Source of the DNA: an uncultured Alphaproteobacteria bacterium
GTDB lineage: Bacteria > Pseudomonadota > Alphaproteobacteria > RF32 > CAG-239
Direction of reading: 5' to 3'
Assembly: GCA_949282205.1 (NCBI GenBank)
Contig: CASDOS010000023.1
Location: forward strand, 2,023 to 66,022
Length of the DNA stretch: 64,000 nt
The notes beneath the pieces were generated by a model. It saw only the letters and a list, made by a program, of their open reading frames with translations. It was not told the DNA's origin and ran no database searches. The position numbers and the translations under genes are program-made. Shown here in pieces: positions 4,004 through 20,184 of this stretch (positions within the stretch are counted from its first letter, which is position 1; each line of letters begins with the position of its first letter).

Positions 4004-6520
4004 TTATCGTCCTTTATCTTTTAACATCGAAAGCTCCAAGTTTCTATTCTGCCCGCTCTGATATTTTTCAAGATCCTCTTGCATTTCATCTTTAAAGAAG
4101 ACCTGTCCGTTCCAATTTTCAGGCAACGTCAAGGAAGAACACTCCTCCATTTGTTTTCTGTCTCTAAAAATAAGACGTTCGGTTCTATGCCAATCAGCTT
4201 TTTCTAAATCGACTTCAGCACAACCGGAAACATCAACGATAGGCGGCAGATTTTCAGCTCTGCACAACGAAACATCAGCGCCCTGTCCAAACCTCAACTC
4301 ACACAAATTATGCAAATCGCACAACGCCAAATTAATGCTACGACAAGCGGAAACATTAAGATGTTCAGGCAAATTAGAAGCATTTCTCAAACTGACATCT
4401 ATTCCGCTTTTAAAACGCAGAGCCTTAGGAAAAGGATTATCATAATCATCAAATTCGGCTCTGTTCAAAGTAACCGAGCGACATTTAGAAAAATCCGTTT
4501 CGGGATGTAAATGAGTAACCCCATCCATTGATACATGAGCATTTTCGGCAAACGTAAGCGGCTTAACCTGCGCCAAACAAGAACTATCAAAGTTAATATT
4601 TGAACAGTGTGAAACATCAACTCTAGCCGGCAATGTTTTCACATGGCGAACCATAACCTCAACGCCATAAGCAAATTTCAGTTCATCAAGTTCGCCCAAA
4701 GCACAAAAAGATAAATTAACCTGTTTACAGTAAGAAAAGTCATAATTACCATGTAAATGAGAAGCAGCTTCTAAATTTACCTCCGCCTGCGGAGCAAACT
4801 TCATACCGTCATAATTTTGCAAATCACAGTAGGATAAAGCGACCTTAGCACATTGAGAAACATCTAAATCTTTAGGTAAATTAGAAGATTGATAGAAATC
4901 AACTGTCGCTCCTTCTGCAAATTTAAGCTTACTTAGTTTACGCAAATTACAGCGGCAAAAGACCACATCAGCGCATTCGGAAACATCAATTTTATCGGCA
5001 ACATCAGAATCCATCAAGAACACGGCACGAGAACCTTTAGCAAATTTAATGTCACTCTGTTGCGGCAAACTCGTATGATCAAACAAAACTTCGCAACAGC
5101 GAGAAACATCAAAATCTTGAGGAAGATTGCTTGCTTCATAAAAAGAAACTTTCGCCCCTTGAGCAAATTTCAAAGCTTCTACCCCGTCAAAATCAATATC
5201 TTTAAATTTCACGTTAGCGCAACCAGCAACATCTACATCATGAGGCATTGAAAAAACATTTTCAAGCTCCACCACAGCCCCGTCATGAAATTTCAATTTA
5301 TCCAGTTGTTCCAAATCACAATGAGCCAGTTGCACATAACAACAACCGGAAAAATCGGTATCATGAGGAATATTTTGGGTTTCATTTAAGATAACCTTAG
5401 AATTTTCGGCAAACTTCAAGCAACACCCATCCGACAATTCGCAAAAAGATAAATCCACTTCCGAGCAAGGAGAAAAATCAATTCCCTCAGGCAAGTTAAA
5501 ACATCCCGATAAATTCACCTTAGCCCCTTTTTTAAAAGAAAGAGCATCAAGATTGGATAAATAGGATTTAGATAAATTGACTTCATCGCAATTCGCAACA
5601 TTCAACTTCTTAATTTCCCCTCCCACGTTACTTAAATCAACCGCCGAACACATAGACAAGTCCAAATTTTCAGGAATATGATAACACCCGCTTAAATTAA
5701 CCTTAGCGCCCTTTTTAAAGCGCAGATGAGAGAATTGCGACAAATCACAACCGGATAAATTGACCTCATCACAATGGCTTAAATCTAAATTTTGAGGAAT
5801 ATTGCTGCATTTACTCAAATCAACCTTAGCCCCCTCAGCAAAACGAAGATTATCCCATCCGTCCAAATCCAAACCGGAAAGCCCGACCTCTGCGCATTGC
5901 GAAAAATCTAAATCATGCGGCGGATTTTGCACATTATCAAAAATAACCTTCGCCCCTTTTTTAAAGTGCAACGGAGCCACATTTTTCAAATCGGTACCAC
6001 TCAAATTGACTTCCGCGCAATTAGAAACATCAATAACCTGAGGAAGTTCCGTTTCCGGACGTCCGCTCCATCCGTCTTTTCCGCAAGATAGATCAACCTT
6101 TGCCCCCTCTGCAAACGTGAGCTTTTGCACATTTTTCATTTTACATCTACGCAAAACAACTTCTGCGCATTGTGACACATCAAAGTCTTGAGGAAAATCG
6201 GAAACATGCTCCAAATATATTTTAGCCCCTTTTCTGAATTGCACTTTATCAAAATTATCAAATTTAAAGAGCAACATCTGAAATTCAGAAAATTTAGTAA
6301 AATCCAAATCATGCGGTAAATTGTAAGACAAATCAAAATTTGCTTTAATACCGTCCCCCAACCGTAATTCCTGATAGTCCGCAAATTTACAATTACGAAA
6401 CGTCACTTCGCGACACCGAGAAACATCAATAACCGCCGGCAAATTCCCCACATCATTAAAATCAATTTTATCTTCCACGGCAACCAATTTGGAATATGAC
6501 GGAAGATATATTCGGCTCAT
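4004..6520 (-). CDS. MFVDI-family repeat protein, repeat and C-cap part only (split gene)
   Basis: The 838-aa product consists of roughly 40-aa repeats (F[KA]xGAKVxL...P..LD[FV]SxCxEVxLSGxDL). It carries the family C-cap LIFRDRKQMEE..LPENWNGQVFF and ends ..KDKGR. Its ATG overlaps the stop of 6517..6924 as ATGA. Confidence 0.85.
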   Translation of the reverse strand: MSRIYLPSYSKLVAVEDKIDFNDVGNLPAVIDVSRCREVTFRNCKFADYQELRLGDGIKANFDLSYNLPHDLDFTKFSEFQMLLFKFDNFDKVQFRKGAKIYLEHVSDFPQDFDVSQCAEVVLRRCKMKNVQKLTFAEGAKVDLSCGKDGWSGRPETELPQVIDVSNCAEVNLSGTDLKNVAPLHFKKGAKVIFDNVQNPPHDLDFSQCAEVGLSGLDLDGWDNLRFAEGAKVDLSKCSNIPQNLDLSHCDEVNLSGCDLSQFSHLRFKKGAKVNLSGCYHIPENLDLSMCSAVDLSNVGGEIKKLNVANCDEVNLSKSYLSNLDALSFKKGAKVNLSGCFNLPEGIDFSPCSEVDLSFCELSDGCCLKFAENSKVILNETQNIPHDTDFSGCCYVQLAHCDLEQLDKLKFHDGAVVELENVFSMPHDVDVAGCANVKFKDIDFDGVEALKFAQGAKVSFYEASNLPQDFDVSRCCEVLFDHTSLPQQSDIKFAKGSRAVFLMDSDVADKIDVSECADVVFCRCNLRKLSKLKFAEGATVDFYQSSNLPKDLDVSQCAKVALSYCDLQNYDGMKFAPQAEVNLEAASHLHGNYDFSYCKQVNLSFCALGELDELKFAYGVEVMVRHVKTLPARVDVSHCSNINFDSSCLAQVKPLTFAENAHVSMDGVTHLHPETDFSKCRSVTLNRAEFDDYDNPFPKALRFKSGIDVSLRNASNLPEHLNVSACRSINLALCDLHNLCELRFGQGADVSLCRAENLPPIVDVSGCAEVDLEKADWHRTERLIFRDRKQMEECSSLTLPENWNGQVFFKDEMQEDLEKYQSGQNRNLELSMLKDKGR

Positions 6521-6924
6521 AGGTTCCGCCCCACACCCAAACCGGTACTGTAATACTGAGCAGAATCAATAATAATTCCCTCTTTAAGTTTCCGCGCCTC
6601 ATCAAAATCGGCCAGATAACCGGAATTTTTAGCCAAAGTTTCCCCAATTTGAGGAATAGGATGCGGCTGTTCACGATTAGAAAAAACAGCCAAAACAACA
6701 TCTTTAAACGGCAACTGTTCATCAATAGGGAGCATGGCAATACAATCTAACATATCTTTGATATTTCGCGCGCAATTTGTAGATAAGAGCACCTCCCGAC
6801 AAACCTCTGGTGTAATTTTTTGTTTTGGCTGTCGCACGCCTCTCACCACAACACCTTTTTTATAAGGTGTAAGTATATTTTCCACGACAATTGGCGATTT
6901 AAGAGCAGAAATATCCACAAACAT
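6517..6924 (-). CDS. stand-alone MFVDI N-terminal domain protein
   Basis: The 135-aa product begins MFVDISALKSPIVVENILTPYKKGVVVRGVRQPKQKITPEVC..STN..IKDML..LP..EQ..FKDVVLAVFSNREQP. This aligns with the N-termini of the fused paralogs. Confidence 0.85.
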   Translation of the reverse strand: MFVDISALKSPIVVENILTPYKKGVVVRGVRQPKQKITPEVCREVLLSTNCARNIKDMLDCIAMLPIDEQLPFKDVVLAVFSNREQPHPIPQIGETLAKNSGYLADFDEARKLKEGIIIDSAQYYSTGLGVGRNL

Positions 6925-6953
6925 AAGCCTTCTTCCATAAATAATATACTAAA

Positions 6954-17158: not shown

Positions 17159-18826
17159 TTAAGCGACTTTCTCGGTCTGCTCTTTTTTAGAACTTTCGCG
17201 CCAAGCCACCACTTTGGCAATCAAAGCACTGGTGGAGCTATCATGTTGAGCCGAAGCCGCCCCTTCCAATTCGGGTAGAATTTTGAGAGCCAACTGCTTA
17301 CCGAGTTCAACGCCCCATTGATCAAAGGAATCAATTTCCCAAATAACCCCTTGCGTGAAAACTTTATGCTCATACATAGCAATCAACATACCGAGCGCAT
17401 AAGGCGTGATTTTCTTCAACAAGAACATATTGGACGGACGATTGCCGTCAAAGCTCTTATTAAGTTTCAATTTTTCAATTGTAGCCTCGTCTTTACCAAC
17501 CGCACGCAATTCTTCGGCAGCTTCCTCAACGGTTTTACCTTTCATCAAAGCCTCGGCCTGCGCCAAAACATTGGCTATAAGGATTTCGTGATGTTTGCCG
17601 TTTTCGTTATGCGAGATAGCCGGAATAATAAAGTCTACCGGCACCGGCTCCGTTCCTTGGTGCAACAGTTGGAAGAACGAGTGTTGAACATCTGTCCCAG
17701 CCCCGCCAAAGAGCGCCGGACCTGTGGCATAGTCGGTAATTTTCTTATTATCCAAACGCACGGATTTGCCGTTACTTTCCATATCAAGCTGTTGCAAATA
17801 AGACGGCAAGAATTTGAGATATTGGTCATAAGGGATAACGGCGTAACGGTGAATATTGTAATAATCGTTATACCAAATGCCGAGCAATGCCATAATGACC
17901 GGAATATTTTTATCCAAAGGCGCGGTGCGGAAGTGATTATCCATAGCTTCCGCCCCTTTTAGGAGTTCCATAAAGTTATCAAACCCAACCGCCAACGCGA
18001 TAGACAAGCCAATCGCAGACCAAAGGGAATAACGCCCACCGACAAAATCCCAAAACTCAAACATATTATTGACATCAATACCAAACTCTGCCACGGCTTT
18101 CGCATTGGTAGAAAGAGCCACAAAGTGATGTTTAACCGCCTCTTCGCCAAGCGCCTTAACCAACCAATCGCGGCAAGTACGAGCGTTTGTCAAAGTTTCA
18201 ATCGTGGTAAAGGTTTTGGAAGCAACAATAAAGAGAGTTTCTTCCGGATTAACGTTATTCAAGACTTCAGCGCAAGCCGTTCCGTCAATATTAGAAATAA
18301 AGAAGCATTGAATATCTTTCGCCCAATATTTTTTAAGAGCACATGTAACCATATACGGCCCCAAGTCAGAACCGCCGATACCGATATTAACGATATTTTT
18401 TAATTTTTTACCGGTGGCGCCTCTGAAAGTTCCGTTACGAACAGCGTCCGAAAATTCCTTCATCTTCGCCTGAACTCTAAGAATTTCGGACATAACGTCT
18501 TTACCATCCACAAAAACCGGTTTGCCGGAGAAATTGCGTAGCGCGGTGTGCAAAACGGCGCGATTTTCGGTGACATTAATTTTCTTACCCGAGAACATAT
18601 CTTCAATACGTTCTTTCAAATGATGTTCTTCGGCCAATTCAAACAAAGCCTTTAAGACTTTATCATCAAAGCGGTTTTTAGAATAATCAAACGTCAAATC
18701 GCCAAAGTTGAGCGTATATTTTTGAGCGCGTTTGCTATCTTCATTAAACAAATCTTTCATCTGTACGGAATTAAAGCGTTTATACTCCTCTAAAAGAGCA
18801 GCTACGGCATTAGACACAGCCATCAT
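17159..18826 (-). CDS. pgi: glucose-6-phosphate isomerase
   Basis: There is full-length similarity to PGI, including motifs IGIGGSDLGP, GGRYSLWSAIG and DQWGVELGK. I prefer the ATG at 18826, which has AGGAG 7 nt upstream, over the track start at 18892. Confidence 0.95.
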   Translation of the reverse strand: MMAVSNAVAALLEEYKRFNSVQMKDLFNEDSKRAQKYTLNFGDLTFDYSKNRFDDKVLKALFELAEEHHLKERIEDMFSGKKINVTENRAVLHTALRNFSGKPVFVDGKDVMSEILRVQAKMKEFSDAVRNGTFRGATGKKLKNIVNIGIGGSDLGPYMVTCALKKYWAKDIQCFFISNIDGTACAEVLNNVNPEETLFIVASKTFTTIETLTNARTCRDWLVKALGEEAVKHHFVALSTNAKAVAEFGIDVNNMFEFWDFVGGRYSLWSAIGLSIALAVGFDNFMELLKGAEAMDNHFRTAPLDKNIPVIMALLGIWYNDYYNIHRYAVIPYDQYLKFLPSYLQQLDMESNGKSVRLDNKKITDYATGPALFGGAGTDVQHSFFQLLHQGTEPVPVDFIIPAISHNENGKHHEILIANVLAQAEALMKGKTVEEAAEELRAVGKDEATIEKLKLNKSFDGNRPSNMFLLKKITPYALGMLIAMYEHKVFTQGVIWEIDSFDQWGVELGKQLALKILPELEGAASAQHDSSTSALIAKVVAWRESSKKEQTEKVA

Positions 18827-19005
18827 AAATCTCCTACAAAAATTATCACTAATGGGCATAAAATAAGCCTCTGCGCGCGGCGTGTCAAGCATTTCGCGCG
18901 CTTATCCGACAATTTTATTGACTAATTGCGCCCCATCGGTTATTCTAAGAGAATAAAAGGAGCTAAAAAGCTAAAAGGCACAGAGGAAAGGCGCAAAGAA
19001 AAGAC

Positions 19006-20184
19006 ATGGCATTTGTTGATATAACCGATCCGAAATCTCCACTAGGCTGCGGCACGTTGATGTTGCCGTATACACGAGTGAGCGCGCCTTTAGTCATCAC
19101 CGATGAAGCCGGGATAGAGATATTAAGCCACACCAATGCGCCGGTGATTATCAAACGCCTGCTCCGATTAATAGAAGATACCAATCGCCCTGAAGACTTT
19201 ACGAAAACCTTATCGGCCATGAGCACCAGACGCGAGCAGCCGCAAGAAATCTGCAATCGGCTCAAGCGCTTGGGCTACCCGATAGAGTTTGATTATAGCG
19301 AGCGCCACGCCAAAGAATACATTTTGCGTTCATCCAACACCAGACAGACGGCGTATTTAGTCCCCGATGAAGTAACCTTTTGGTATCCGGAGTGGGCAAC
19401 GGTAGACAGCCTGATGCTCAATCCGCACGGCAAAACCGCCACCATCATCGGCGCGCTTTATAAAACCCCGGATGCAGAAAGCGATGGCTTACCGCAAAAT
19501 CTGGATTTAACCAGCGGCAAAAGATTAACCACGCTCCAATTAAAAGGGCTTGACTGGACCAAACATGATGTCGTCTTTCCAAAAGAGCTTGAAACATTGG
19601 AGCTGCAAGACATCAAGAATTTCCCGAAGCACTGGGACATTTCCAACCTTCCCAACTTAAAAAAACTCCGCTTAAACAACATAGACTTGCACAATTTTGA
19701 GTTTAACACGCTACCTCTGACAATAGAAACCTTAGAGTTAAACAGTTCCACCCGTCTCACGAACCTTCACCAATTGAGTATTCGTCCGAAACTACAAAAC
19801 TTACGCATCGGCAAAGGCAATGATTTAAGCTATTGCAAACTTCCACGCCTTGCGCGACTGCGCACGTTAGAGATACCGGAATGTCAAAACGTCAACACCG
19901 ATAAATCCATAGCAACATTATACCCGAATTTATATGGGCTAAACATTTCGGGGATGCGTATAAAAAATGAAAGATTTATGGAATTACCGAAGACATTAGG
20001 GATTTTGTATATGAATCACACCAAATTTCCGCCGTCATTTGACCTACGCACATTACCGCTCAACCAATTAAAAACAGTCAAATGGAACGATAAGACACTC
20101 ACCGGCAGCAAATTAGATGCGATGCTATACACCCAAAATGTATTAAAAAGCCAACACTTGGATTTAAAAAATAAACACCGATAA
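19006..20184 (+). CDS. divergent MFVDI N-domain fused to classical leucine-rich repeats
   Basis: The N-terminus MAFVDITDPKSPL...SHTN...RREQP aligns with the family N-domain. The C-terminal 230 aa carries LxxLxL-type repeats of about 22-24 aa (LETLELQDIKNFP, LPNLKKLRLNNIDL, IETLELNSS). The protein ends ..KNKHR. Confidence 0.8.
   Translation: MAFVDITDPKSPLGCGTLMLPYTRVSAPLVITDEAGIEILSHTNAPVIIKRLLRLIEDTNRPEDFTKTLSAMSTRREQPQEICNRLKRLGYPIEFDYSERHAKEYILRSSNTRQTAYLVPDEVTFWYPEWATVDSLMLNPHGKTATIIGALYKTPDAESDGLPQNLDLTSGKRLTTLQLKGLDWTKHDVVFPKELETLELQDIKNFPKHWDISNLPNLKKLRLNNIDLHNFEFNTLPLTIETLELNSSTRLTNLHQLSIRPKLQNLRIGKGNDLSYCKLPRLARLRTLEIPECQNVNTDKSIATLYPNLYGLNISGMRIKNERFMELPKTLGILYMNHTKFPPSFDLRTLPLNQLKTVKWNDKTLTGSKLDAMLYTQNVLKSQHLDLKNKHR

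Follow-up and report, generated by a model that had tools for sequence, protein, structure and literature searches.

The closest described relatives of P0001, the protein analysed here, are the LRR and FNIP proteins (clan LRR with LRR_4/LRR_8, including internalins, SDS22 and TLR ectodomains; FNIP, PF05725), with which it shares LxxLxL repeats of 21-24 aa and a predicted curved solenoid with one strand per turn. Compared with the known LRR proteins, P0001 has no signal peptide, no LPXTG anchor and no other known partner domain. It adds an undescribed N-terminal domain, here called the N-domain, and a basic tail ending in arginine, and it stays below the Pfam thresholds. The LRR fold is already known; new is its combination with this lineage-specific N-domain and this tail.

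The layout of a helical domain at the N-terminus and a variable LRR-type solenoid behind it, in a family of many paralogues, is also found in the GALA proteins of Ralstonia, the eukaryotic FBXL proteins and the F-box-FNIP proteins of giant viruses. GALA proteins, however, use a type III system, which is lacking in the genome that encodes P0001, and sequence and fold searches revealed no F-box similarity of the N-domain. The substrates of VirB/D4 (type IVA) systems, such as Agrobacterium VirF, VirE2 and VirD2 and the Bartonella Beps, offer another comparison. P0001 likewise comes from an alphaproteobacterial host with VirB4, VirB8 and VirD4, and it has a net-positive, Arg-rich tail and no signal peptide. 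In contrast to these substrates it contains no BID or other known signal domain, and its translocation is putative. In VirB/D4 substrates of Alphaproteobacteria a positively charged C-terminus serves as the signal. The known type IV signals, being C-terminal, do not explain a conserved N-terminal domain, which is a feature of P0001 foreign to them.

Within the same genome P0001 has paralogues with 41-aa Cys repeats (e.g. those encoded at 11747-13582 and 59763-61304), with which it has in common the N-domain, the basic Arg tail, the absence of a signal peptide and a profile-level kinship of the solenoid. The repeats of P0001 are irregular and 21-24 aa long, whereas these paralogues have a strict double unit with Cys ladders. 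P0001 also lacks their FKNRxQM cap, and it has a putative promoter of its own instead of the 5' cassette of the family. Unlike the 41-aa paralogues it is a single-copy syntenic orthologue outside any tandem array.

The gene lies in a stretch of 64,000 nucleotides, referred to as the window (C23:2023-66022), of a genome of 1.98 Mb in 59 contigs that is 99% complete. The features of the locus are listed in Table 1. The product begins with MAFVDITDPKSPL..., and its highest Kyte-Doolittle value over 19 residues was 1.17. As the first-pass annotation had stated, P0001 is the sole plus-strand family member within the window. A comparison of upstream regions confirmed that the cassette common to the 41-aa-type paralogues is missing in front of it. 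Orthologues of P0001 occupy the corresponding position next to pgi in three other MAGs; their identity to P0001 is 73-88%, that of pgi 94-98%.

Table 1. Positions of P0001, its parts and adjoining features in the window.
Feature	Position	Strand	Evidence and remarks
pgi	17159..18892	-	adjoins the P0001 gene divergently; spacer 113 bp
Promoter-like site TTGACT-17 nt-TATTCT	18918..18946	+	consensus scan, 9/12 matches; consensus match only, putative
Complete ORF, P0001	19006..20184	+	intact; ATG at 19006, TAA at 20182-20184; 392 aa; without signal peptide, without transmembrane helix
N-domain, residues 2-105	19009..19320	+	HMM 36.8 bits, E 3.6e-10 genome-scale; alignment; predicted helices
Linker and irregular N-terminal solenoid cap, residues 106-165	19321..19500	+	AlphaFold2 strands 116-119, 135-138, 144-148, 165-167; pLDDT 61-89
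LRR solenoid, residues 166-366	19501..20103	+	nine LxxLxL registers, pLDDT ~90, Foldseek LRR matches
C-terminal helix and basic tail, residues 367-392, ...KSQHLDLKNKHR	20104..20181	+	AlphaFold2; net charge +3 over last 20 residues

A profile HMM of the N-domain was built on residues 1-115 of nine paralogues encoded in the window, P0001 being left out. It matched P0001 residues 3-89 with 36.8 bits and an E-value of 1.1e-10 among the 690 six-frame ORFs of the window, while the best unrelated ORF of the window reached only 0.87. When the search was extended to the whole 1.98-Mb genome, with its 9,013 six-frame ORFs, the E-value of P0001 was 3.6e-10. The sequence is diverged: the N-domain of P0001 is ~30% identical to its paralogues, whereas the other paralogues are mutually 48-87% identical. 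An earlier proposal that P0001 starts with a divergent but alignable N-domain, to be scored with an HMM of the family, was therefore borne out by a significant match. The alignment of P0001 with the paralogues contained 19 invariant columns, including F2, V3, D4, K9, S10, T49, N50, R84, Q86 and P87, and the FVDI, KS, TN and REQP motifs by which the ~110-aa N-terminal domain of the family is recognised were all found in P0001. An extended FVDIxxPKSPL head comes first, and the TN and REQP motifs lie in the helical core behind it.

For the N-domain of the paralogue at 59763-61304, AlphaFold2 predicted six helices (residues 11-22, 39-46, 52-63, 67-81, 88-100 and 104-111) with pLDDT values of 84-91, and a disordered linker at residues 113-136 behind them. 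The helices predicted in P0001 at residues 45-58, 62-73, 80-88 and 99-108 correspond to helices 3-6 of this six-helix domain. Model confidence at P0001 residues 1-44 was low because the alignment held just 11 sequences. Among the orthologues of P0001 the N-domain is the best conserved region, with identities of 59-100% compared with 32-90% for the LRRs. It had no match in Pfam, NCBIfam or PADLOC, and its profile likewise found none among all PDB sequences. Sub-threshold similarities to CCDC22_N and the Cns1/TTC4 Wheel domain were the sole hints, and the helical bundles found in the Foldseek search with a full-length 41-aa member (Fis1, talin VBS, LEDGF IBD) had E-values above 4. On profile similarity the N-terminus of P0001 and the N-domain of the family are truly homologous, and this domain is an undescribed, lineage-specific one.

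The nine LxxLxL registers of P0001 start at residues 174, 195, 218, 240, 263, 285, 309, 331 and 355, with a spacing of 21-24 aa. The repeats alternate between two flavours, LPxxhExLEL and NhPxxhDhSxLxxLKxLxL, and have the LxxLxLxx(N/C) core and the length in the range of 20-30 aa that characterise tandem LRRs. Over residues 115-365 the AlphaFold2 model had a pLDDT of ~90. Each repeat contributed one short strand, at intervals of ~22 aa, in agreement with a curved solenoid in which every repeat adds a parallel beta-strand; a C-terminal helix was predicted at residues 367-390. When the model was compared with the PDB using Foldseek, only LRR proteins were found (TLR8, internalins C2, F and A, SDS22, LRRC8 and a Roco LRR), with a probability of 1.0 and E-values between 8.5e-5 and about 1e-3. 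P0001 itself remained below the Pfam LRR cut-offs (best 17.7 bits compared with 27), but two of its orthologues exceeded Pfam cut-offs, P0011 for LRR_4 (35.6 compared with 27) and P0010 for FNIP (22.5 compared with 21).

The HMM of the 41-aa unit, on the other hand, found no unit in P0001 at E-values up to 10, and P0001 was never recruited in five iterations of this HMM against the family and the whole genome. According to the predicted structure, the C-terminal part of P0001 is thus a bona fide LRR solenoid and not a 41-aa repeat, and the statement of the first-pass annotation that LxxLxLxxN-type LRRs replace the Cys repeats proved correct.

The same annotation had noted that P0001 lacks the FKNRxQM cap yet ends in arginine, and both observations hold. 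A regex scan did not find the FKNRxQM motif in P0001. The cap is not universal, however, as the same regex fails on slightly more than half of the listed 41-aa members. An alignment of the P0001 segment LKTVKWNDKT on VKxLIFKNR was considered as a sign of cap homology and rejected, the best profile alignment not being significant (E 0.025, probability 2%). The tail of P0001 is basic and Arg-ended (...KNKHR, +3 net over the last 20 residues). An Arg-ended tail was present in 29 of 40 members from the same genome, in 83 of 120 representatives and in 15 of 19 LRR-type members, compared with 6.9% of 1,313 background ORFs. Ten of the 11 P0001 orthologues end in arginine, and the tail is otherwise their least conserved part (16-58% identity, with the exception of P0002, 100%). 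The tails of the family carry a net charge of +1 to +6, mostly +3 to +5.

The structure of the 41-aa repeats was predicted for the member at 59763-61304. AlphaFold2 gave one 5-residue strand per ~20.5 aa with pLDDT values above 90, so that each 41-aa unit would comprise two turns. This solenoid had no significant PDB match by Foldseek, the nearest structures being LRR proteins (best E 0.054). Its neighbours in BFVD were LRR/FNIP proteins of giant viruses, with a best E-value of 5.5e-3 and a probability of 0.97. Pentapeptide repeats were also considered for the 41-aa units and were rejected: Pfam PF00805 gave E-values of 0.17-0.2 and ~12 bits compared with a cut-off of 20.2, the NCBIfam Qnr models reached 18 bits compared with 460, and no such structure was among the Foldseek matches.

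The two repeat types were compared directly by hhalign, with the LRRs of P0001 and its orthologues on one side and a profile of 694 41-aa units on the other. The match had a probability of 93%, an E-value of 2.7e-7 and a score of 44.6, while none of 40 column-permuted unit profiles scored above 17.8 and the reversed unit gave 15.0. In this alignment NFPKHWDIS is paired with NLPENLDFS, and LETLELQDIKNFPKHWDIS...LKKLRLNNIDL is placed on GAKVNLNGVCNLPKNLDFS...EVNIGDCDL. Intermediates were found as well. P0141, P0101 and the gene C52_1125-2528 of the same genome matched both repeat types at scores of 40-55, while three genes of contig C24 and P0095 matched only P0001-type LRRs, at scores of 60-75; the maxima obtained with 30 unrelated proteins as controls were 14.7 and 19.3 for the two repeat types. 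At the level of profiles, the LRRs of P0001 and the 41-aa Cys repeats of the family are homologous, the 41-aa unit being a regularised pair of ~20.5-aa LRR-like turns. This link comes from the profile-profile comparison and the intermediates, and short solenoid repeats can converge.

A tree of the N-domain was calculated from 157 rows. P0001 and its orthologues formed a clade of 12 rows with 99% support. Rows without 41-aa units were mostly deep, and the rows with 41-aa units formed one crown (137 rows, support 92). When the repeat type was mapped on this tree, 7 label changes were needed compared with 22.6 in shuffles, and none of 500 shuffles was as low. Two sister genomes, G011 and G138, contain a single family gene each, which was detected with a broader N-domain profile (A4); it encodes ~370 aa and is of the LRR type. 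This gene is 52% identical to the LRR-type gene C24:24298-25449 of the genome studied here, which exceeds the LRR_4 cut-off (33.8 compared with 27), and it is collinear with P0001 over 331 residues, from the N-domain through the LRRs (E 7e-8). Contig C24 carries three LRR-type genes inside a tandem array of 41-aa-type genes. The LRR-type members probably came first, and the 41-aa proteins expanded later; as the tree was midpoint-rooted without an outgroup, we infer this order rather than read it from the root.

The N-domain had been suggested to be a portable module that was attached to interchangeable scaffolds by domain shuffling, in which case a mobile N-domain would have been joined in P0001, by recombination, to an LRR scaffold of separate and unrelated origin. 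Reuse of the domain does occur. A profile search of 1.84 billion protein cluster representatives retrieved only 223 that carry the N-domain; it starts at residue 1 in nearly all of them, and most bear 41-aa units. In P0105, P0121 and P0132, which fall into three distinct clusters, the core (FTPE...TN...REQP...LA) is located C-terminal to an unrelated ~270-aa domain, and P0105 is encoded on a MAG contig of 74.7 kb in a chromosomal context. P0100 and P0110 contain two tandem cores and no solenoid, and P0116, P0130 and P0137 are proteins of ~200 aa with the N-domain only. In P0031 the N-domain precedes a partial GNAT domain. This fusion was confined to a single scaffold of 1,369 bp and hardly differs from P0030 over the first ~175 residues, so that it may be a chimera. 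The survey for other fusions that the first-pass annotation had called for thus lends the portability of the N-domain some independent support, from architectures that are rare among the 223 representatives.

For P0001 itself the failure of the 41-aa HMM to detect it would also fit a foreign scaffold. Yet the profile-profile similarity of the repeat types far exceeds the controls, the N-domain phylogeny co-varies with the repeat type, the LRR-type members are joined by full-length collinear homology and the P0001 orthologues are syntenic. Moreover, the N-domain of P0001 (~30% identity) is as diverged as its own repeats, and a recent swap would not leave such divergence. We therefore regard a swapped scaffold as improbable. 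From repeat homology, tree, collinearity and synteny we conclude that the architecture diverged as one unit, i.e., that the solenoid and the basic Arg tail diverged along with the N-domain and that no unrelated scaffold was swapped in. P0001 is a vertically inherited, syntenic, deep-branching family member. The N-domain core forms a module of its own and is reused now and then, but P0001 is not a case of reuse; to this extent the portable module of the first-pass annotation is retained and the shuffling is not. We hold the anatomy and the evolutionary relationship of P0001 given here to be very probable.

The genome contains 44 copies of the family, which occupy about 4% of its 2 Mb according to a rough estimate. 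The N-domain profile of the window found members in 12 of 25 genomes of the genus (0-62 copies each) and none in 16 genomes of other genera. With the broader profile, 9 of the 19 genomes sampled from the genus had members, and the 132 genomes of 19 other genera of the order had none. The family is confined to a single genus of uncultured Alphaproteobacteria of the gut. In the literature nothing was found on this family or on the secretion system of this lineage.

As an explanation of this architecture, we propose that the fast-evolving solenoid may serve as a variable binding surface and that the conserved N-domain and the basic Arg tail may be constant parts, which would be read by a shared machinery. 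The overall reading of P0001 as a co-diverged protein of N-domain, LRRs and Arg tail, i.e., a binder with shared handling, is given a probability of roughly 0.6. The only candidate machinery found was the genus-wide VirB/D4 type IV secretion system. The genome encodes VirB4 (45.3 bits), VirD4 (131 bits) and two VirB8 proteins, and VirD4 was present in all 25 genomes of the genus, while neither a T6SS sheath nor a T3SS/flagellar export gate was found in the genome itself. As there is no Sec signal and no T6SS sheath or T3SS gate, and as VirB/D4 genes and a basic tail are present, export by the type IV system is tentatively favoured. It might deliver the family proteins to a neighbouring cell, either eukaryotic or bacterial. 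The tails of the family are net positive, although a basic C-terminus is a weak criterion for type IV substrates. The co-occurrence of VirD4 and the family does not discriminate, because VirD4 occurs in all genomes of the genus and the family in part of them, and no recurrent partner gene was found beside the family clusters. That the family proteins are type IV substrates is a tentative assignment, less likely than not. A more far-reaching proposal would be that N-domain and Arg tail form a new two-part recognition module, by which the chromosomal type IV system of a commensal exports fast-diversifying LRR-derived binders, with P0001 as their conserved single-copy LRR-type member; we consider this unlikely.

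Variable binders could also remain in the cytoplasm, as sensors or adaptors in defence or regulation, with the N-domain as an oligomerisation or signalling domain. The missing signal peptide of P0001, the tandem arrays with their fast-changing repeats, the patchy occurrence of the family within the genus and the lack of co-variation with the type IV system would all agree with this. No PADLOC model matched, however, and the proteins are devoid of the NTPase or nuclease domain that is usual for LRR-type immune sensors. A conserved Arg-ended basic tail is also hard to explain in a cytoplasmic sensor, and the clusters have no recurrent partner genes. Such a role is less likely than not but is a serious rival. 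Far less probable is a third explanation, in which the N-domain is a cryptic F-box-like adaptor and the proteins hijack host ubiquitin ligases by F-box plus LRR/FNIP mimicry, as in Ralstonia GALA. The parallel layout of a small conserved helical N-terminal domain and variable LRR/FNIP-like repeats is in line with it, and so is the score of the orthologue P0010 above the Pfam FNIP cut-off. The BFVD neighbours of the 41-aa member include a giant-virus 'F-box and FNIP repeat' protein (E 0.31), and the segment TPEVCFEILKSTN resembles LPxEhhxxIhxxL by eye. None of the 11 N-domains was matched by an F-box model (PF00646, PF12937) at E-values up to 1, however, and the N-domain profile retrieved no F-box protein among 177,635 PDB sequences at E-values up to 10. 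Foldseek retrieved the Skp2, FBXL and TIR1 structures with neither model. The N-domain consists of six helices over ~110 aa and not of three over ~45 aa. An F-box identity of the N-domain was rejected on the profile, PDB-sequence and Foldseek searches.

With variable binders handled through constant parts as the preferred reading, P0001 is informative for the family as a whole. Its repeats show, at the level of profiles, that the 41-aa Cys repeats derive from ordinary LRRs by regularisation, and its ends, the N-domain and the basic Arg tail, show which parts of the family are constant. For a family of 44 copies that is confined to one genus, this gives a testable picture in which the binders vary and the signals for their handling stay the same. 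Should type IV secretion be the machinery behind this handling, the family would be an effector repertoire in an uncultured human/animal gut bacterium, with a signal domain that has not been described before.

The LRR-type form of the family was also found outside the window, on contig C24 of the same genome, where three N-domain genes of this type stood in tandem and were flanked by 41-aa-type members. Counted as stop-to-stop frames, the three genes comprised 384, 466 and 475 aa, and the first passed the Pfam LRR_4 cut-off. An orthologue of this first gene (52% identical) was the sole family gene in two other genomes of the genus, G011 and G138. In one MAG (L035), the orthologue of P0001, the LRR-type protein of the window, matched residues 1-374 and 306-390 in two different frames, which could reflect a frameshift or a duplication of the C-terminal repeats.

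The N-domain also occurred apart from the repeats. At the left of the window a separate N-domain ORF lay directly upstream of an 838-aa repeat ORF; the family gene is therefore split at this site. The N-domain-only pattern recurred at the right end of the window. The database proteins P0105, P0121 and P0132 ended in the N-domain's helical core, which followed an unrelated domain of about 270 aa; both the solenoid and the Arg tail were absent. On its 74.7-kb MAG contig the P0105 gene had chromosomal surroundings, with rsmB, two uncharacterised genes and ftsK as neighbours. The metagenome representatives P0100 and P0110 (about 255-268 aa) carried two helical cores in tandem without a repeat region. 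In P0031 a partial GNAT acetyltransferase was fused behind an N-domain and linker almost identical to those of the family member P0030; the protein ended in NKNRR. As P0031 is known from a single 1,369-bp scaffold only, this fusion may be a chimeric assembly.

Elsewhere in the genome, VirB4 adjoined type IVb-pilus-like genes (T2SSE, T2SSF, PilO-like, secretin), two VirB8 paralogues and several secreted coiled-coil proteins, one of 1,811 aa. VirD4, conserved in all 25 genomes of the genus, lay apart from this region, beside a 698-aa ORF which, read by eye, we take to be ligA.

Locations of the loci described (C, contigs of the source genome G000; L, contigs or scaffolds carrying relatives)
Feature	Location	Parts
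LRR-type trio	C24:24298-28360	
P0001 orthologue	L035:4001-5378	
Split family gene	window 4004-6948	repeat ORF 4004-6520; N-domain ORF 6520-6948
N-domain-only ORF (143 aa)	C23:65982-66410	
P0105	L038:5001-6155	
P0031	L037:388-1314	
VirB4 region	C34:29392-56486	
VirD4	C50:59488-61707	
41-aa-type genes	window 11747-16368	

The repeat period was exactly 41 aa in the genes at window 11747-16368 and in other 41-aa-type genes. The unit can be divided into eight x[DN]Lxx pentapeptides with one residue left over. Against Qnr/pentapeptide models it gave matches that were far sub-threshold only. The fold predicted for the 41-aa-type members resembles that of LRR/FNIP proteins, unlike a quadrilateral helix.
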